A stretch of DNA of 64,000 nucleotides, taken from the IMG/VR virus record IMGVR_UViG_3300046804_003398. One strand, 5' to 3'. The DNA is from a virus. Lineage: Duplodnaviria; Caudoviricetes. Below, piece after piece: positions 31,314-60,493 of this stretch (its first letter is position 1; every line of letters begins with the position of its first letter). The notes beneath the pieces were generated by a model. That model was given only the letters and a program-made list of their open reading frames with translations, searched no databases and was not told the DNA's origin. A program made the translations under genes and the position numbers.

Positions 31314-31497
31314 TTTTTTTAATTTTCTCTTCTAAGTATAGAGTATATCTAGCTTGTTGTCTACACTTAACTAGTTGAACTCCTAATAAATCTACTTTGA
31401 CGACACGAATACCTTTTGAACCATATTCGTTCATTATAGTTTCCAATTCTTCTGTAGTAGATACAGTATGTATCCTAACACTATATTTGTATTTCAT
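31306..31497 (-). CDS. small hypothetical protein
   Basis: 63-aa ORF overlapping both neighbours by a few nt. Confidence 0.6.
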   Translation of the reverse strand: MKYKYSVRIHTVSTTEELETIMNEYGSKGIRVVKVDLLGVQLVKCRQQARYTLYLEEKIKKNE

Positions 31498-32624
31498 ACT
31501 GCTACCTCCGCTTTAATTGTTGGATGTGGATCATAGTTCAACAACTTGATATCATCATACTTGAAGTTGAACAAATCCTTTACTTCGGGATTCAACCACA
31601 AACTAGGTAGTGCTTTTGGTTCACGACTCATTTGTAGTTTGATTTGATCCAAATGGTTGACATAAATGTGAGCATCACCGTGACTATGAGTGAATGTTCC
31701 CGGCACCATATTACTAACGTGAGCAATCATTGCGGTCAACAAACTATATGACGCAATGTTAAAAGGAACGCCCAAGAAAAAGTCATTGCTGCGTTGGTAT
31801 AACAAACAATTCAAACGACGGGTTGGAGTGTTACTTACATCAAACAACTCAACCATAGTTGATTCTGGTTCGGCAATCAAATCCCCTCCGTTATCTCGGT
31901 ATAATTGAAAACGTTCATCATATGTCAACTCTTCTGTATGAAAGTGAAATAAACAATGACATGGAGGCAACGCACAATGATCAACCCAGTATGGGTGCCA
32001 TGCACTTACAATCATACGACGATCATCTGGATTAGTTTTGAGTTTGTCAATTACTTTTTGTAGTTGATCAACTGTTTCTGCCGACCATCCACGAACTTCC
32101 ATGAAAGAACCTTTTTCATCTTGTTTGTTATAGCCAATTGGGCATATACGAGCGGGAAAATTTCTCCACATTCCACCATAAGTTCCTTCACCAAGCTCAC
32201 CCCATCTATTTGCAAACGATTCGTCAAATTTAATTTTTTCAACAAATTCTTCTTGTGTCAATTTGTTCTCTTGCACCGCTGGAATGTCTCTCTCCATATT
32301 TTCTGGAGAAGTATAGAATTTTGCTCTATTTTCCCACCAATCAGAATATTTCTTATATGCCCATTCGTTCCAAATACGAACATTGTTATCAACCAGATAC
32401 TTGATGTTGGTATCACCACTGATAAACCACAATAGTTCGTGAACAATTGCTGGCCAATGAACTTTCTTGGTGGTTAATAGAGGAAATGCGTTTAGATCCA
32501 CATTGTATTTGGCTTGAGCACCAAAAATACCAATGGTATCTACACCAGTTCGGTTCTTTTTAAGTCTTCCGTTTGTCAAAATATCATTGACAATTCTGAA
32601 ATATTCTGTGTCTACTTTGTTCAT
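31494..32624 (-). CDS. thyA: thymidylate synthase
   Basis: NRTGVDT, FPLLTTKKV, IWNEWA, DDRRMIVSAW, ALPPCH, YQRSND.FLGVPFNIASY, GDAHIY. Confidence 0.97.
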   Translation of the reverse strand: MNKVDTEYFRIVNDILTNGRLKKNRTGVDTIGIFGAQAKYNVDLNAFPLLTTKKVHWPAIVHELLWFISGDTNIKYLVDNNVRIWNEWAYKKYSDWWENRAKFYTSPENMERDIPAVQENKLTQEEFVEKIKFDESFANRWGELGEGTYGGMWRNFPARICPIGYNKQDEKGSFMEVRGWSAETVDQLQKVIDKLKTNPDDRRMIVSAWHPYWVDHCALPPCHCLFHFHTEELTYDERFQLYRDNGGDLIAEPESTMVELFDVSNTPTRRLNCLLYQRSNDFFLGVPFNIASYSLLTAMIAHVSNMVPGTFTHSHGDAHIYVNHLDQIKLQMSREPKALPSLWLNPEVKDLFNFKYDDIKLLNYDPHPTIKAEVAV

Positions 32625-32625
32625 A

Positions 32626-33099
32626 TTACTTACTATACTTTATAACTTTGTGTAGGTCAAATTCTTTCACCACTTCTTGCTTGTTATACAAGTGTTCAAA
32701 CGTTGGCATAAATGTATCACCCTCATAACTACCATTTACATGCGTAACATAAAATTCTGTAATATATGGTAGTAATCTAACATATGTTTTAGCTCCGCCC
32801 GCAACAATTATGTCTGGGTCCAGATCAGATACATCATTGATGATTTTGCCTGACAGACCGTTGTTATTGACAATATACTGGTTGGTTATGTGACTGAGTT
32901 CTTCTACTCTACGAGTCAATACTAGAATTTCTCTATTCTTGAGCATAGGAAGAGTATCAAATGTGTTTTTTCCCACAATAAGTTTTTTGCCCATCGTGAA
33001 CTCTTTAAACCACTTGAAGTCTTCTTTTATGGATGGCCATGGCAGTCCACCATTTTTTCCAATAACTCTATTTTGTGCTAACGCAAGTATGGCTTTCAT
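32626..33099 (-). CDS. folA: dihydrofolate reductase
   Basis: NRVIGKNGGLPW..KEDFKWFK, VGKNTF..LKNR, VAGGAKTY, GDTFMP. Confidence 0.95.
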   Translation of the reverse strand: MKAILALAQNRVIGKNGGLPWPSIKEDFKWFKEFTMGKKLIVGKNTFDTLPMLKNREILVLTRRVEELSHITNQYIVNNNGLSGKIINDVSDLDPDIIVAGGAKTYVRLLPYITEFYVTHVNGSYEGDTFMPTFEHLYNKQEVVKEFDLHKVIKYSK

Positions 33100-44683: not shown

Positions 44684-45298
44684 ATGTATCAATACAAAAA
44701 CCAAAGACCAACTGGCTCAGACTTTGACGACGAAGAAATTATCATAACAAAACCCACTCGGGGACAAAGCCAAGTTCATGGCAACGAAATATACTTCTAC
44801 AGTGATGTCTCACTTGGAAGTATTTTTTCTTTGAACAAAGCTATCTCAGACCTTGAGAAACAAATGTTGATCGCCCAAATTCAATTGGGTATGCCAAAAC
44901 CACCACACGTTAAACTATTCATCAATAGCGACGGCGGTGAAATATTCAGTGCTTTTACAACTGTAGACAGAATTAGCACTTGTAAAGTTCCAATTCATAC
45001 ATACGTTGAAGGTATTGCAGCCAGTGCTGCAACGTTAATCAGTGTATGTGGCAAACGTAGATTTATTGGCAAGACGGGTGTAATGTTGGTTCACCAATTG
45101 AGAAGTTGGTGTGGTGGAACTCACGAAAACTTCAAGGATGAAGCTAAGAACCTTGAGATGTTATCAGATAAAATCCAAAAGATATATCTGGAACATACCA
45201 AGTTTACCAAGGCTGATCTTGATGAAATTCTAAAGCATGACATTTATTTGAGTGCTGAAGAGTGTGTCAAGTATGGATTGGTAGATGAAATCCTGTAA
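44684..45298 (+). CDS. ClpP-family serine protease
   Basis: LFINSDGG, GIAASAATLI (Ser), MLVHQ (His), DIYLSAEECVKYGLVDEI (Asp). Confidence 0.9.
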   Translation: MYQYKNQRPTGSDFDDEEIIITKPTRGQSQVHGNEIYFYSDVSLGSIFSLNKAISDLEKQMLIAQIQLGMPKPPHVKLFINSDGGEIFSAFTTVDRISTCKVPIHTYVEGIAASAATLISVCGKRRFIGKTGVMLVHQLRSWCGGTHENFKDEAKNLEMLSDKIQKIYLEHTKFTKADLDEILKHDIYLSAEECVKYGLVDEIL

Positions 45299-54139: not shown

Positions 54140-56359
54140 TCAACCAATTGCGTAGTTAAACCCAAAGTATTCGTTCTTATTTTTTGCGTATTGAGCAAAT
54201 GCTACTGCATTTGTTTTCATTCGTCGTTGAATTTGAGATGGACCACTTTTTGCATTTTGGTGATTCAAGTATTCTCTCGCAGCATTAGTCCAATCGCCAC
54301 TGTTCATCAATCCAATTGTTTTTGGTCCAATATCTCCTCTATACAACGCATTTATAATTGCGTTTTTGACATATGTTGGTAGACTTGTAAAATTACTAAT
54401 TTTCTTGGATGCTAATTTTTCTTTGGTCTTAACATCCACGTTAAACAACTTTTCAATTTGATCGTCTGTAAGTTTTTGTTGACCATTTAATACTTTATCA
54501 TAATCTACAGTATTTCCGAACAAAGCCTTAAATAATTGACGGTCTTGTTGACTATTATTTAGATAGTGACCAATTCCAATCGTAGGCAAACCAGCACTAT
54601 CTTTATAGACAGTATCTTTTTTGCCTTCCCAATGACCTATATAATCACTTGTTTTTTTGTTCAACAAAGAGGCCTCTGAATTTTTTATAGAGGTTTGTGT
54701 TATCGCAGGTTTGCCGGCGACTTTCGAGGCAGCAGCTTGTAACTTATCGCCTCCAGCCAAAGCCCCCAATCCAATTGCTCCGGCAGCAACCCAGTCTTTC
54801 CAACCTTCTTCAAGTTCTTTTGCAATTCTCACTTCGTCCAGCTTTCTACCTTCTGGACCAAAGTGATCTAGGTGGTGATACACATCGTCCAAGTATTCAC
54901 CGGCCAAGTTCAACTTAGCTTTCACCCAATCTTCCAACTCAGAATTTGGTTGCAACATCGACTCCAACTCTTTTGCGTCATTGTTGATTTGTTTCAATGC
55001 TCCCATAGCCATGCTACTATTGAACTCTTTCAACAACTGATTGGTAACTTCTTTATACACTTCTCTCACTGGTTTACTCTTTGTGTGTTTACCAGCTTTT
55101 CTTAACTGTCTAGCTCTACAATGAGCCTTTTGACCAAATCCCTTTGGATTGCTACAGTCTATGCTTCTCTTATACTTCATAGACCATTTCTCACTGATTT
55201 GATCAATTGGAGTTCCAGCCTCCTTTTCGTCTTGATAAAATTTCAAATAATCTCTGACTGTAGCTACATAATCACAAGCATGATTCAACTTAGCCTTTAC
55301 CCAGTCTTCCAAGTTATCATTTACATCAAACATCGATTGTAGTTCATCACTATATTTGATGATCTTATTCACATCACTTTGTGCCATCTCAGCATTTTCA
55401 TTTAACGAAGAATCTGTCCAGTTCTTGACATCAAGTTTTCCCTTTTGGTGTAATTTAGTCAAATCTGAATAATGAAACGAATACTTGTATAAGTCTTTCA
55501 ACCTCTTGGTCAATTCTGGAAATTGTTTGCCCAAACCAATCAACACTGTATCCACAGAACTTTGAGTCACTATATCTTTTGCTGGCGTTTTGGCTTTACC
55601 GAGAAGTTTAATCTTCTCCAACTTGGATATCAACTTCAAAGCATAGTTTTTATAAGCTTGATATGATTGATAGTTGGTCATAGCTACGTCGTTTGATTCA
55701 GTCATATTTCTAAGTTTTTGTAATGCTTTTGCGTAACCAGCTGGTAACTCTGATGCTCTCATGTGTGCTGTTTTTACGAACTCTTTTTCTTTCTTGGACA
55801 ACTTTGGTTTTTCAGATGATATCTTTGGACTAAATCCACTTACCAACTGAAACTCACTTGATGGACCAGTTCCGGCCATACCCATTTGAATATATGTGGC
55901 ACTAGATGGAAACTTGGTGAGATACTCCTTGAGTGCGTCATATTGATTTTGTGTAATGGCTGTATTCCATATACCCACAAAATAGTAATTCTTGTTGTGC
56001 AGATTCACAAGCCATGCACGACCACTCAAACATGTTTTTCTCAAAAATACCATGTCATCTTGATCCGCATACTTTTCTTTTCTTATGTCTTGTAGTTCTT
56101 TACTACTTGCCAAAACAGTTTCTTTATGATCCGATCCTTGACCACCTTTTAAGATCAATTTTTTATCACCGTCTGCATAAATGATAAAAGCATAACCATT
56201 TTCTTCGGTTGCTTGATACACCGTCTCAAACTTCTTCAATCCCAAAGAAAATGCTTTAAGGTTAAAACCCCGAGCAGATGGTGGTGTCCCCAGCCTGTCG
56301 CCGAAGCCACTCACCATATACTCGGAGTTTCCTATTTTGATCGGATATGCTTTGTCCAT
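54140..56359 (-). CDS. modular head-internal protein with C-terminal GH24 lysozyme
   Basis: Two LEDWVKAKLN repeats, KWSMKYKRSIDCSNPKGF module, hydrophobic WVAAGAIGLGALAGG, lysozyme E-x8-D-x5-T (HWEGKKDTVYKDSAGLPTIGIGH). Confidence 0.85.
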   Translation of the reverse strand: MDKAYPIKIGNSEYMVSGFGDRLGTPPSARGFNLKAFSLGLKKFETVYQATEENGYAFIIYADGDKKLILKGGQGSDHKETVLASSKELQDIRKEKYADQDDMVFLRKTCLSGRAWLVNLHNKNYYFVGIWNTAITQNQYDALKEYLTKFPSSATYIQMGMAGTGPSSEFQLVSGFSPKISSEKPKLSKKEKEFVKTAHMRASELPAGYAKALQKLRNMTESNDVAMTNYQSYQAYKNYALKLISKLEKIKLLGKAKTPAKDIVTQSSVDTVLIGLGKQFPELTKRLKDLYKYSFHYSDLTKLHQKGKLDVKNWTDSSLNENAEMAQSDVNKIIKYSDELQSMFDVNDNLEDWVKAKLNHACDYVATVRDYLKFYQDEKEAGTPIDQISEKWSMKYKRSIDCSNPKGFGQKAHCRARQLRKAGKHTKSKPVREVYKEVTNQLLKEFNSSMAMGALKQINNDAKELESMLQPNSELEDWVKAKLNLAGEYLDDVYHHLDHFGPEGRKLDEVRIAKELEEGWKDWVAAGAIGLGALAGGDKLQAAASKVAGKPAITQTSIKNSEASLLNKKTSDYIGHWEGKKDTVYKDSAGLPTIGIGHYLNNSQQDRQLFKALFGNTVDYDKVLNGQQKLTDDQIEKLFNVDVKTKEKLASKKISNFTSLPTYVKNAIINALYRGDIGPKTIGLMNSGDWTNAAREYLNHQNAKSGPSQIQRRMKTNAVAFAQYAKNKNEYFGFNYAIG

Positions 56360-56360
56360 A

Positions 56361-57665
56361 TTACTTCTTCTTCTTGAACTTACTCAAGGTCATTGCCAAT
56401 CGAGCACGTTGACCCAACTTGCCACCCTTCTTTGCGGCAGCTGCCAACTTAGCCTTTGGAATTTTTTCACCTTGTGGAACGTCCAATTGCTTGTGTAGAG
56501 CACCTTTCTTGGCTGGCTTGATTGCGTTCTTGATCCACTTCTTCTTGGTCTCTTCAATTTCCTTGGATTGTTCAAAGGTAATTTCACCAAGAGCTTCTTC
56601 ATCAGCACCTTCATCACCAGTGTCAGTGGACATTTGGGTCGCAGGAGTTTGTTCAGTTTCGTCACCACCAGTTTCTACTTCACTGTCAGATGGTGGTAGT
56701 TGATCAGCATCTTGAGTTGGAGCAGATGCTTGTGGTTCATCACTTGGTGGCAACTCGTTTCCTTCTGGAGCAAGTTGAGTCATCAAAAGATCATGCAACT
56801 TTTGTGCTAGATCTTTGTCAAGTGTGATAGTTACTGATTCTTGGTCAGCACCAACTTCTACTGGTTCGTCACCACCCTCTTGTTCACGAAGGTGCTTACG
56901 AATGATTTTCTTGATTGATTCTTTTAATTGTTTTTCTTTCATAGAGTAATGTTTGTTTTCTGCATATCCGACAAAATCGTATCCACTTCCGTATGTTCCA
57001 AGACCTTCAGGCGATGCTTCGGCTGGACTTGGACCATCGAAAACTTGTGAGACAACACTTTCACTTGGTGTTGATTCTTCGCTCATTCTCCAACCACCAC
57101 CTTTGGATTTATACCATCTAGCTGCCCAACCATTTGCATAGGCACTTGGATAAACATCAAACTTGGATCTAGCAGCTGCTTTTGCTCTTGCCCACAAAGC
57201 TGGATTTGTTGGTTTTGGTTTTTTCTTCTTACTGGCTTCTTGTAGTTGTATGTCGATGGTTTTATTGTGTTTACCTTCTCCATCAAAAGGATTGTTTGAT
57301 TTGTCAATTATTGGTGTGCTAGCTCTACCATCAACTTGACCATCTGATGTTCCACCAATACTACCTTTTACATTGCCTGGTCCTACACCATCTTCACCAA
57401 CTCTGGCTGGATCATTGAAACTTTGATCTGGGTCACCCAAACCAGAACTAGCAGATCCACCAAATTCGTCAGCCAAACCAGCCTTGATTAATTTGGTATA
57501 ATATTCAGGATCTTCGGTCAAATGATCCAATGCAATTTCTTGAGCAATCTTAGGATCATTGGTATGTTCCATTTCGACTTGAATACCAACACTGAGTTGA
57601 GTTGGATCAACGTCACCTGGATTGGTTAAATCACCTTTACCGCCTCCTAAATAGTTTATCTTCAT
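56361..57665 (-). CDS. modular head-internal protein (DUF5661-like plus basic modules)
   Basis: GIQVEMEHT..AQEIALDHLTEDPEYYTKL; PTNPALWARAKAAARSKFDVYPSAYANGW; KKWIKNAIKPAKKGALH..ARLAMTL. Confidence 0.8.
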   Translation of the reverse strand: MKINYLGGGKGDLTNPGDVDPTQLSVGIQVEMEHTNDPKIAQEIALDHLTEDPEYYTKLIKAGLADEFGGSASSGLGDPDQSFNDPARVGEDGVGPGNVKGSIGGTSDGQVDGRASTPIIDKSNNPFDGEGKHNKTIDIQLQEASKKKKPKPTNPALWARAKAAARSKFDVYPSAYANGWAARWYKSKGGGWRMSEESTPSESVVSQVFDGPSPAEASPEGLGTYGSGYDFVGYAENKHYSMKEKQLKESIKKIIRKHLREQEGGDEPVEVGADQESVTITLDKDLAQKLHDLLMTQLAPEGNELPPSDEPQASAPTQDADQLPPSDSEVETGGDETEQTPATQMSTDTGDEGADEEALGEITFEQSKEIEETKKKWIKNAIKPAKKGALHKQLDVPQGEKIPKAKLAAAAKKGGKLGQRARLAMTLSKFKKKK

Positions 57666-57868
57666 TTCTTTAAACCTTGTTGAAATTTTTGAAATCCTTT
57701 GCCACTGTCATATCCATAATCAATCATCCATCTACGTCCATGCATTGCTGGATGACCAATGATAGGATCATTTAGTTTTCCTTGTTGACCGATATAAGAC
57801 CAGTCGGCTGGCAACTTAGAAGGAGTCCTATATTGAGGCTTCTGTGAGTTGGCAAAGTTATTACTCAT
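57662..57868 (-). CDS. small hypothetical protein
   Basis: 68 aa; ATATTTATT upstream. Confidence 0.65.
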   Translation of the reverse strand: MSNNFANSQKPQYRTPSKLPADWSYIGQQGKLNDPIIGHPAMHGRRWMIDYGYDSGKGFQKFQQGLKK

Positions 57869-57883
57869 GTTAATAAATATAAA

Positions 57884-58432
57884 TTAGACCTGATAAATCC
57901 AACAAGTATCCTTAATAGTTATTCTATCTTTTGGAAACAGTTCATCTATAGCCTTAATGACACCCGCATGTTCTGGGTTGGTTGGGTCGTCCAAATTATA
58001 GTCATGACCCGCAAGAATACCCCCTTTTTTCACTTTTGGTAACCATGTGTCTATGTCGAGAGTGATACATTCATACAAATGACAAGCATCAATAAACACA
58101 AAGTCCAATGAATTATTCTCAAAATGTTCAGATCCTTCAACCGATGATCCACGAATATGTTTATATAAGTTAGGATTCTTGAGAAAACCATCCATATTAC
58201 CACGATATATTTGATATATTTCTTCCGCTGGCCAACTGTCCACAGACGTTAGTTGAATGTTTTTCTTGGAATTGATTATTTCCACAAGCATATAAGCCGC
58301 AGATCGTCCTTTCCACGATCCAATTTCAACAAACTTGCTGTTGTCTTTTGCTTGTTCAACAATCATTTTGTAAACGGAGGGATAGTTGAACCAATTTTCT
58401 CCGAAACTAACGTTAGTATATACATGTTCCAT
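57884..58432 (-). CDS. class I SAM methyltransferase (Methyltransf_24-like)
   Basis: FVEIGSWKGRS, VFIDACHLYE, GGILAGHDY. Confidence 0.9.
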   Translation of the reverse strand: MEHVYTNVSFGENWFNYPSVYKMIVEQAKDNSKFVEIGSWKGRSAAYMLVEIINSKKNIQLTSVDSWPAEEIYQIYRGNMDGFLKNPNLYKHIRGSSVEGSEHFENNSLDFVFIDACHLYECITLDIDTWLPKVKKGGILAGHDYNLDDPTNPEHAGVIKAIDELFPKDRITIKDTCWIYQV

Positions 58433-58491
58433 AACTCAAAAAATATCAATTATACGGGTATATAATACATATGTATGCTTCGGTAAATCAT

Positions 58492-59940
58492 ATGAAAATT
58501 ACTCTAATTATACCTCCTTCACCATTTCTACTTGATGAACGAGTGTTTCCAAGTCTTGGGTTGTTAAAAATAGCGTCAGTATTAAAATCCAAATACGATG
58601 TAAGTGTTTTGGACTTGAGTGGTATTAAAAATTACTTAGACGCATGTGAACATTATTTGCAAAATACAACCGACACAGTTTTCGGCATCACTGCTACCAC
58701 ACCTCAATTACCACATTCAATCAAGATCAAAGATTTAATCAAAAAATACAACAGTAATGCCAGAGTAATATTGGGTGGACCACACGTTACATTGATATAT
58801 TCCGCATTCAAGAGTAATCCAAATAAACGATCTACAGTAAACAAAGAAGCACTAGAACATCACTTTGATTGTTTGGTGAGTGGAGATGGAGAAAAGGCTA
58901 TATTTCCAGCTATCGAAACAGATACTAGATTTGTAGACGGTGATGATCCAAAGCAATCATTCTTTCTAACCAACGAAGATTATGAAAAGTTACCATATCC
59001 ATCCAGAGATTTGATCGACTTACATTCATATCATTATGCAATTGATAAAAAATCTGCAACAAGTATCATCGCACAACTTGGATGTCCATTCAATTGTGGT
59101 TTTTGTGGTGGTAGATTAAGCAATTCTCTACGCAGAATAAGAACTCGTAGTGGCAGTAACATTTTGAACGAAATCGAATATCTTCATAAAGAGTATGGAT
59201 ATGAAGGATTCATGTTCTATGACGACGAATTGAATGTAAACAAACAGTTTGAGAATCTATTGAACGACCTAATTGACCTACAAAAAAGATTGGGTGTGGA
59301 TTTCAGATTCAGAGGATTTGTCAAGAGTGAACTATTCACTGACTCACAAGCAAAGTTGATGTATGAAGCTGGGTTCAGATGGATATTGTGTGGATTTGAA
59401 GCTGGCAATGATCGTATTCTTGAAAATATTAACAAGAAGGCTACTTACGATGATAACGTGCGAGTCATTGAAAAGTGTAAGAAGTATGGATTGAAAATCA
59501 AGTCACTGATGAGTGTTGGACATCCCGGCGAAAGTGAACAAACCATCAACGACATATCCAACTTCTTGATCAAAAATGAGACGGATGATTTTGATTGTAG
59601 TGTGATTACTCCATACCCAGGAACTCCATACTATGACAAATCACTTCACATTGGAAATGATATTTACAAGTATACTGTGCCTAAGTCTGGTGACTCACTA
59701 TATTCCAAGAGTATCGATTACAGTGTGACCAGTAACTTTTATAAAGGTATTCCAGGCCAAAACTACGAAAGTTATGTTTACACCGATTACCTTAGTTCTA
59801 CAGAAATTGTCACATTACGTGATAAATTGGAAGCAGATGTTAGAAACAAATTGAAGATTCCATTCAATGCTTCAACTGCGGCAATATTGTATGAACACAG
59901 TATGGGACAGTCACTACCTAACTTTGTTTTGAAAAGTTAA
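58492..59940 (+). CDS. cobalamin-binding radical SAM enzyme (paralog A)
   Basis: B12-binding N-terminus (PSLGLLKIAS..GITATTPQ..LGGPH); GCPFNCGFC; DDELN; GFEAG. Confidence 0.92.
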   Translation: MKITLIIPPSPFLLDERVFPSLGLLKIASVLKSKYDVSVLDLSGIKNYLDACEHYLQNTTDTVFGITATTPQLPHSIKIKDLIKKYNSNARVILGGPHVTLIYSAFKSNPNKRSTVNKEALEHHFDCLVSGDGEKAIFPAIETDTRFVDGDDPKQSFFLTNEDYEKLPYPSRDLIDLHSYHYAIDKKSATSIIAQLGCPFNCGFCGGRLSNSLRRIRTRSGSNILNEIEYLHKEYGYEGFMFYDDELNVNKQFENLLNDLIDLQKRLGVDFRFRGFVKSELFTDSQAKLMYEAGFRWILCGFEAGNDRILENINKKATYDDNVRVIEKCKKYGLKIKSLMSVGHPGESEQTINDISNFLIKNETDDFDCSVITPYPGTPYYDKSLHIGNDIYKYTVPKSGDSLYSKSIDYSVTSNFYKGIPGQNYESYVYTDYLSSTEIVTLRDKLEADVRNKLKIPFNASTAAILYEHSMGQSLPNFVLKS

Positions 59941-60446
59941 TTGTAGTAGTCACCACGTTTCAAAGCATACTTGCGTGCTTTTAGAATCGTCATAACTTCC
60001 ATGAGAGCTTCATCCTTTTCATCTGGATATACGCCCAACATATGGAGTTTGCTGTAATACTTTGGATCTTTCTTTAGATTCTTGACCACAGCAGATTTTG
60101 CCACTTGACGATCCTTCAATACCAACTTCTTCATTTCATAATCAATACCCATGATAACTTCGTCTGGAGTTACTTTGTATTTGATTTGTTCTACGTCTTT
60201 AACATAATCCCAAGGATCTTGACCATTGTAAGGTGCGAATGGAGCAACCTTTGAAATCGAATCTTTTGAACTAACAGTCAACTTGCTTTTGTCATCCAAC
60301 GTTCCAAACTTGCTTGGGTCTTGTGTGACATCTGGACTACTGAACGTGTCAAAATCAGATGCACCAGTTATAGCTCCTCCTTGACCATAAGGAAGCCCTT
60401 GCATCATTCTATCGCCAGTATCTCCCACTTCGTTGATTTTTGACAT
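59937..60446 (-). CDS. head-internal-type protein with DUF5661-like C-terminus
   Basis: MSKINE; GIDYEMK..KNLKKDPKYYSKL parallels 56361; ATATTTATA upstream. Confidence 0.7.
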   Translation of the reverse strand: MSKINEVGDTGDRMMQGLPYGQGGAITGASDFDTFSSPDVTQDPSKFGTLDDKSKLTVSSKDSISKVAPFAPYNGQDPWDYVKDVEQIKYKVTPDEVIMGIDYEMKKLVLKDRQVAKSAVVKNLKKDPKYYSKLHMLGVYPDEKDEALMEVMTILKARKYALKRGDYYN

Positions 60447-60493
60447 ATGTATATAAATATGAACAATTACACAAACTCACCATAAAAAGATGA

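Follow-up and report, generated by a model that had tools for sequence, protein, structure and literature searches.

Modular proteins joined at conserved hydrophobic-x-Glu junctions, one of them ending in a lysozyme, as predicted head-cargo precursors of a Caudoviricetes virus

When a 64,000-nucleotide (nt) stretch of the Caudoviricetes virus record IMGVR_UViG_3300046804_003398 (IMG/VR; hereafter the window) was analyzed, four modular open reading frames (ORFs) were found as an earlier reading of the letters alone (the sequence-only reading) had described them: P0001 (54140-56359, minus strand, 739 aa), P0002 (56361-57665, minus strand, 434 aa), P0003 (59937-60446, minus strand, 169 aa) and P0004 (47066-47668, plus strand, 200 aa). 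That reading had proposed that these proteins are head-internal precursors which are cut after (I/L/M)-x-E tripeptides during head maturation. For comparison, 69 related loci were taken from IMG/VR, and the alignments made for each protein comprised 11-17 homologues. Near-identical DNA was found neither in cultured phages nor in IMG/VR or the Joint Genome Institute (JGI) metagenome contigs. In every relative the order is the P0003 homologue, a 68-aa gene, the P0002 homologue, the P0001 homologue and a 118-aa gene, all contiguous and co-oriented, and P0003-P0005-P0002-P0001-P0006 is a single five-gene operon. P0003 opens this cassette, P0005 (57662-57868, minus strand) is the conserved 68-aa gene between the P0003 and P0002 homologues, and the 118-aa P0006 (53780-54136, minus strand) is the last conserved gene.

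P0001 consists of a series of parts, all on the minus strand, and its full-length AlphaFold2 (AF2) model is of low confidence (mean predicted local distance difference test score, pLDDT, 56.6). The N-terminal domain (residues 1-215; 55715-56359) is a clade-restricted alpha/beta fold with an AF2 pLDDT of 85.6 when modelled alone and with ~10 cluster representatives among 1.84 billion proteins. It had no Pfam or PHROG match and no usable atlas match. Foldseek gave no fold match (best E-value 0.03 against PDB and 0.014 against a viral library), and the best result of a wide VIA-align search (Z 3.9, gelsolin-like domains) is not meaningful. The domain is without a detectable fold or sequence relative outside the clade. 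The second part is a helical domain (residues 222-321; 55397-55696; pLDDT 70-87 with a dip at 319-324) which ends at a conserved S-[LM]-x-E junction, LNE321. It is followed by helical repeat 1 (residues 322-390; 55190-55396; NAEMAQ...LEDWVKAKLN..., pI 4.4), ending in ISE390, by a basic Cys module (residues 391-445; 55025-55189; KWSMKYKRSIDCSNPKGF..AHC, pI 10.3), ending in LKE445, and by helical repeat 2 (residues 446-509; 54833-55024), ending in LDE509. The two helical repeats with LEDWVKAKLN noticed in the sequence-only reading were confirmed as a duplication, as these segments are parts of a duplicated unit of ~57 aa (322-378 vs 447-503, 42% identity, E-value 3e-13). Relatives carry extra modules inserted exactly after the Glu of LDE509.

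After an invariant LEE518/G519, P0001 continues with a signal-peptide-like segment (residues 519-544; 54728-54805; GWKDW, then VAAGAIGLGALAGG, then ..QAAA/S) and a T4-lysozyme-like GH24 muramidase domain (residues 576-713; 54221-54634; PF00959, 33.4 bits vs a cut-off of 22.3; phrog_7 endolysin, E-value 1.2e-14). As read from the translation, HWEGKKDTVYKDSAGLPTIG holds E, then D nine residues on, then T six after D. The catalytic residues of T4 lysozyme are numbered E11/D20/T26, and the intact E-D-T of the earlier description is upheld by both the Pfam score and the T4-like 9/6 spacing. The conserved C-terminal tail (54143-54172) reads EYFGFNYAIG in the window and EYFGFxxYF in relatives. A tail of this type, EYFGF(N/T)(Y/T)YF, is retained irrespective of the catalytic domain in front of it (L007, L014-L033, P0014, P0038), and it may resemble outer-membrane-protein beta-signals or YxF C-termini.

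P0002 begins with DUF5661 (residues 19-59; PF18905, 46.5 bits vs a cut-off of 27) and continues with a Gly/Ser linker, LQE, a basic SAYANGW module (144-196), MSE, a helical piece, an acidic low-complexity region (262-372), IEE and a basic C-terminal module (373-434). The isoelectric points of its fragments alternate between 4.1-4.4 and 10.7-11.2. P0003 starts with M-[SRK]-K-[IL]-x-E in 11/11 homologues, followed by (L/V)GD, which gives a leader of 6 aa. A DUF5661-like domain lies near its C-terminus; of the two such genes named earlier, P0002 is thus assigned by Pfam and P0003, which has no Pfam match, by pairwise similarity to the P0002 domain only (E-value 1e-7). P0004 consists of a 13-aa leader (MDIYSKYEKQINE), a basic GGW..CG module (14-120), LSE and an acidic helical piece (121-200); its homologues share a 13-aa leader ending in [IL]xE and an invariant L[SH]E/IF. 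In one relative (L014:7985-9805), the P0002 homologue contains a 240-aa intein-like insert (Cys start, ..TGN/S end) which divides the basic module between VYP and SAYANGW. In L014, L016 and L007, the homologues of NifU and of the SNF2 helicase are 1.5-6x as long as those of the window, so inteins are probably present there too.

T4 gp21 cleaves after L/I-x-E (PMC9026906), and the sequence-only reading expected such tripeptides above background frequency and at the module boundaries. When [ILM]xE sites were counted against composition shuffles, 7 were observed vs 6.7 expected in the 739-aa P0001, and the counts in the other window proteins were 8 vs 4.7 (p 0.09), 2 vs 1.1 and 2 vs 1.2. As the count equals the shuffle expectation, the frequency argument was not borne out. 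All of the tripeptides listed earlier are present, and they are conserved at the true junctions. Some that had been listed or implied are not boundaries: LTE49 sits within DUF5661, LKE143 sits within a helix of the P0001 N-terminal domain, and MTE219, whose M is aligned with the start Met of shorter homologues, marks a gene-fusion point.

At the true module junctions the Glu at P1 is invariant across the homologues, P3 is I, L or M (sometimes F or V) and P2 is variable. In T4, an Asp placed at P1 prevents processing. The conserved junctions are E321/NAEM, [IL]xE390/KW, LxE445/F, [LF]DE509 and [LI]xE518/GW in P0001, and MSE196 and [IM]xE372/[AT]KK.W in P0002. Glu conservation was 0.85 at motif sites vs 0.65 at other Glu residues (Mann-Whitney p 0.004), a difference that is inflated because the homologues are related and because acidic linkers depress the Glu baseline. 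The extra modules of relatives are inserted directly beside junction Glu residues, and 5/8 insertion hot-spots in the MAFFT alignments lie within 3 residues of a motif Glu (rough binomial estimate ~3e-4). L/I-x-E sites thus stand at the boundaries of the predicted fragments, as in T4-type substrates, and their raw count is not enriched.

The least likely of the alternatives, which we judge very improbable, is that no common mechanism exists and that the proteins are hypervariable mosaics of small domains whose tripeptides stem from Leu/Glu-rich helical linkers and shared ancestry; the chance-level frequency, the inflation by kinship and the low baseline set by acidic low-complexity linkers agree with it, whereas the clustering of insertion points at motif sites and the recurrence of the junction across unrelated architectures and phage groups (54 contexts, and enrichment in cyanophage proteins; see below) do not.

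The segment behind LEE518 was compared across 54 unique contexts. All copies are preceded by [LIVM]-x-E and start with G-[WL], and this start is followed by an uncharged run of 12-22 residues and then usually by small-x-small (AQA, ALA, VDA, ADA, AAA). A strict A-x-A occurs in 29/54 contexts and the others have mostly V-D-A or similar. The domains behind the segment are GH24 of two types, GH19-like, Hydrolase_2 or LysM-like, all of them wall-acting. The sequence-only reading had called the segment a hydrophobic helix and the hydrolase membrane-inserting. The segment and its conserved site are indeed present, but its hydrophobicity is low (a Kyte-Doolittle maximum of 0.95 over 19 residues) and it looks signal-peptide-like rather than a stable membrane anchor, so that membrane insertion seems less likely than a signal peptide unmasked by the cut.

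The flank of the segment bears on this point. The 15 aa upstream are net negative in 98% of the 54 contexts and net positive in none, which is the wrong polarity for a Sec signal or a signal-arrest-release (SAR) anchor if the protein stays uncut. The uncut internal segment breaks the positive-inside rule and the cut form does not; likewise, the P0001 segment takes the N-terminal position of the Sec n-h-c layout only after a cut at the junction. P0001 also departs from SAR endolysins, as its segment begins at residue 519 behind an acidic flank. Stand-alone lysozymes of 229-255 aa have an acidic leader of 14-22 aa ending in L-[TNV]-E before G (e.g. ..ELEQILLTE/GW..), and behind it an otherwise classical-looking signal peptide (..VPRLASVGGLAAALAFGNPAQA/K). 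The most economical reading of these patterns would be that a cut after Glu removes an acidic mask and leaves an export-competent N-terminus. On a 314-kb ENA scaffold (L075), a leader-bearing stand-alone lysozyme lies 6 kb from three MIQLS.YAKLL.E genes; these three consecutive genes (L075:201-2949) share the leader MIQLS(D/K)YAKLL.(K/E), which resembles a capsid-targeting tag and belongs to another jumbo phage.

The main rival explanation, which we regard as unlikely, is that P0001 is an ordinary late, Sec-exported lysis enzyme which is never packaged. Its internal segment would serve for export, as a signal or a signal-anchor. The lysozyme would be set free in the periplasm by the Sec pathway and the signal peptidase of the host, and the N-terminal modules would stay cytoplasmic; the tripeptides would be structural, and the other cassette proteins would be unrelated late cytoplasmic proteins. 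This agrees with the hydrophobic run and its small-x-small end (AQA, ALA, VDA, AAA), with the chance-level tripeptide frequency, with the plain GH24 lysozyme annotation of homologues at JGI and with the window showing no other endolysin. The replacement of the P0001 GH24 by another lysozyme type or Hydrolase_2 in relatives is endolysin-like as well. However, the acidic flank is the opposite of Sec and SAR n-regions, and the acidic leader of the stand-alone forms would hinder export unless removed. Moreover, the invariant P3 and P1 with a free P2 are left unexplained, as is the detection of a related module family in virions (see below). No holin- or spanin-like membrane protein was found within the cassette either. 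The reading of the cassette as a lysis cassette was rejected, as neither P0005 nor P0006 has a transmembrane segment or a match in family profile searches.

The basic modules match proteins of the T4-GC_119 family of T4-like cyanophages (S-SM2, S-BM3, Bellamy and S-SM1), whose genes are flanked by those for the terminase, gp16 and gp17. SBM3_185 matched P0002 with an E-value of 5e-24 and P0004 with 2e-18. SBM3_185 and SSM1_115 of S-SM1 are members of phrog_727 and match DUF6321. In profile searches P0001-P0004 matched neither phrog_727 nor DUF6321, so the modules alone are shared with T4-GC_119. Sullivan et al. 2010 (PMC3037559, Suppl. Table 8) give T4-GC 119 the entry "Structural protein, Y, 13", which records its detection in purified virions of S-SM1 with a peptide count of 13. 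In the cyanophage proteins [ILMVF]xE is enriched (Bellamy_123, 19 vs 11.0, p 0.004; SBM3_185, 9 vs 3.9, p 0.006), and hydrophobic-x-Glu sites precede recognisable modules in both. In other T4-like phages the basic Cys module is a stand-alone gene of 51-55 aa with a leader like a capsid-targeting sequence (CTS), and the leaders of these KWSxKYKKSIxC modules read MKSFKQFQE/SWS, MKTLKQFLKE and MKLIELLE..VVE/KWS. The CTS of T4 is the first 10 residues of IPIII (PMC9026906). In Vibrio phage VPs20, DUF5661 directly follows a DUF2213 head-maturation-protease domain, upstream of the capsid gene.

A candidate protease was found among the module carriers. On a 288-kb T4-like contig (G006/G007, 92% complete) with a stand-alone module, the gene for an S77 protease (79.7 bits) adjoins an acidic scaffold-like gene, and ~5 kb from the protease lies a 143-aa gene composed of a helical module, SINE and a basic module. 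S-SM1, another module carrier, encodes gp21. When cyanophage gp21 was used as the query, unrelated contigs only were retrieved. Within the window there is a ClpP-family protease (44684-45298, plus strand; PF00574, 99.5 bits; 49-52% identity in relatives). It was rejected as the processing enzyme because it is a Clp-family protease, with no known cleavage after Glu. PHROGs label ClpP-related families as "head maturation protease"; the window ClpP is not of the S77/gp21 type.

A second alternative places these proteins in the virion outside the head, for tail or baseplate ejection and wall digestion, without prohead-protease processing and with the motif serving as a linker for module shuffling. 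We consider it improbable, more so than the lysis enzyme. It agrees with the position of the cyanophage T4-GC_119 genes, whose neighbours are tail-fibre-like, neck and terminase genes. In myoviruses, moreover, the wall hydrolases of the virion usually belong to the tail, for example T4 gp5. However, this explanation accounts neither for the CTS-like leaders on stand-alone modules, nor for DUF5661 inside a head-maturation protease protein, nor for the strict hydrophobic-x-Glu/Gly junction ahead of every copy of the hydrophobic segment.

The time of expression is suggested by a motif in front of the genes. The putative late promoter motif TATTTATA (60452-60459, minus strand) lies 5 nt ahead of the P0003 ATG and is kept at the same distance from the start of the P0003 homologue in 10/10 relatives. 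It is also found upstream of P0004 (47052-47059, plus strand), ahead of P0005 and ahead of four further window genes. In the window, the otherwise contiguous cassette is broken after P0003 by an inserted B12-radical-SAM gene (58471-59940, plus strand) and a methyltransferase (57884-58432, minus strand); L003 has the methyltransferase insert only and the remaining relatives have neither. The part of the cassette downstream of the insert has its own TATTTAT motif (~57873-57879) before P0005. Across the window, aTATTTATA stands 4-7 nt upstream of the ATGs at 12801, 14326, 18224, 42566, 47066, 57868 and 60446. At this distance there is no room for a Shine-Dalgarno sequence, and the genes behind the motif may be transcribed as near-leaderless late mRNAs.

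With these observations taken together, we give about an even chance to the reading in which the modular proteins are made late, loaded into the prohead and cut there by a T4-type (gp21, S77-like) protease after the hydrophobic-x-Glu junctions. The five-gene operon and P0004 would be expressed late, and cleavage of the loaded proteins after the conserved junctions would free pieces of ~6-25 kDa, alternately acidic helical and very basic, plus the GH24 muramidase. The predicted pieces of P0001 are the 24.8-kDa N-terminal domain, the 11.5-kDa helical domain, acidic helical units with pI 4.4 and 4.7, the 6.5-kDa basic Cys module (pI 10.3) and a 24-kDa pre-lysozyme. P0002 would yield acidic pieces as well as two basic ones, with pI 10.7 and 11.2. 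The last P0001 cut, at LEE518/G519, would strip the acidic upstream flank and expose the internal Gly/Ala-rich segment (GWKDW - VAAGAIGLGALAGG - QAAA/S) as an N-terminal Sec-type signal peptide. Infection would then deliver the packaged muramidase, which would be ejected along with the DNA or set free as the envelope is crossed, and which could get to the peptidoglycan via the export machinery of the host or by inserting from the periplasmic side. The comparisons themselves establish the modular layout, the conserved and well-placed motif, exchangeable wall-acting domains after a constant leader, an operon with a late-type motif, and homology to modules of a cyanophage family found in virions. 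Packaging and cleavage, the protease responsible, the route of delivery and any role of the basic modules are inferred; DNA binding by the basic blocks would be pure inference.

An extension of the prohead-loading reading, which we put forward as doubtful, is a two-key device. In it, a portable leader would be masked by its acidic upstream flank during synthesis and packing and armed as a Sec signal peptide by the prohead protease in the capsid, and the enzyme, once ejected, would be re-exported to the periplasm by the export machinery of the next host. The predicted leader (hydrophobic-x-Glu/Gly-Trp-Lys-Asp-Trp, a Gly/Ala-rich core and a signal-peptidase-like site) appears on GH24, GH19-like, SleB-like and LysM domains in many aquatic phages.

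Several points weigh against prohead loading and processing. The raw (I/L/M)-x-E count is at chance level in the four window proteins, and the modules inserted at 321 have QYE, KAE, TAE or KSE at their right edge, not L/I-x-E. The tripeptide might owe its conservation simply to the fold of each module. An N-terminal capsid-targeting tag is absent from P0001 and P0002, and conserved leaders are found only on P0003 (6 aa) and P0004 (13 aa), not of ~10 residues; the untagged proteins might enter the prohead through binding of their repeated helical modules, or of DUF5661, to the core. An S77 protease was not found in three 64-74-kb fragments of relatives (~20% complete), in which the gp45 clamp was not found either, and ClpP is the sole protease within the window. 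The swapping of catalytic domains is equally typical of ordinary endolysins, and the reading does not explain what a phage would gain by bringing in an export-competent muramidase at infection. Of the earlier proposal of head-maturation precursors there remain the conserved junction motif, the relatives linked to virions and to a head protease, the CTS-like leaders and the late-promoter-like motif; the frequency argument has gone, and the two largest proteins lack a tag.

Head loading in the T4 style with gp21-type processing is an already known kind of mechanism. The T4 internal proteins IPI, IPII and IPIII and Alt have leaders of ~10 residues ending in L/I-x-E, which are cut by the prohead protease, and are delivered with the DNA (PMC9026906). 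P0003, P0004 and the stand-alone module genes of relatives have leaders resembling these, and the cargo predicted here from the genes alone is small and mostly basic. In contrast to the T4 proteins, a single polypeptide here combines several modules separated by internal junctions, no tag is present at the N-terminus of P0001 or P0002, a muramidase whose signal peptide would be masked is among the predicted cargo, and there is no sequence homology. T4 gp22, gp67 and gp68 and the inner-body or ejection proteins of phiKZ and SPN3US are cut at many x-x-Glu sites (PMC9026906, PMC5694885). The window proteins are similar to these in their multiple post-Glu fragments (predicted here), their acidic and basic pieces and their redundant sites, but they look like arrays of independent, mobile domains, also found as single genes, with an enzyme at the end, rather than scaffold or inner-body parts. 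With T4-GC_119/phrog_727 they share basic SAYANGW, GGW..CG and KYKKSIDC modules and helical EDWV..AK modules, and in both the modules are preceded by hydrophobic-x-Glu; they differ in having no DUF6321 C-terminus, in genome location and in including a lysozyme.

Wall hydrolases are carried or exported by other phages as well. T7 gp16-type internal virion proteins have a wall-hydrolase domain in the capsid and are ejected to aid genome entry (review, PMC8954989). A peptidoglycan hydrolase carried inside the capsid is proposed here too, from the genes alone; the podovirus core proteins, however, form a trans-envelope channel, are without prohead-protease processing or a signal-peptide-like leader and have no homology to the window proteins. 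Secreted and SAR endolysins (fOg44 Lys44, P1 Lyz, R21) have an N-terminal Gly/Ala-rich export segment with a positive n-region and sometimes a signal-peptidase site. As in these enzymes, the P0001 muramidase stands behind a Gly/Ala-rich, weakly hydrophobic export segment, but this segment is internal and lies behind an acidic flank and an invariant hydrophobic-x-Glu/Gly junction. What is new is the polyprotein of mobile modules and its spread over T4-like phages of fresh and marine waters, the T4-GC_119 family among them, together with what appears to be a wall hydrolase whose signal peptide is masked until it is cut. In the literature, no description of such modular, hydrophobic-x-Glu-joined head-cargo proteins was found. 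Capsid targeting sequences and cyanophages were found together only in a T4 head-assembly review (PMC9026906). Nothing relevant was found on DUF5661, DUF6321 and DUF3008, and for DUF5872 the single match was a paper on the genome of an algal virus, without relevance here.

Few viruses are as abundant as the T4-like phages of lakes and oceans, and no role is known for most of the proteins that their virions carry. If the junctions are true protease sites, one short motif would let annotators divide dozens of "hypothetical" mosaic proteins, including the T4-GC_119 family, into mature cargo. It would also describe a safe way to transport a wall-digesting enzyme, whose export signal would stay hidden up to head maturation, and prohead proteolysis would thereby have a new regulatory role. 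A leader that stays constant while the wall-acting domains behind it are swapped is a directly testable handle.

The remaining content of the window is phage-like, with eight tRNAs, sugar-nucleotide enzymes, NifU, three B12-radical-SAM genes, methyltransferases and ClpP. A tblastn search of phages with the SNF2 helicase gave no match. A thymidylate synthase gene adjoins a dihydrofolate reductase gene at 31494-33099 (minus strand).

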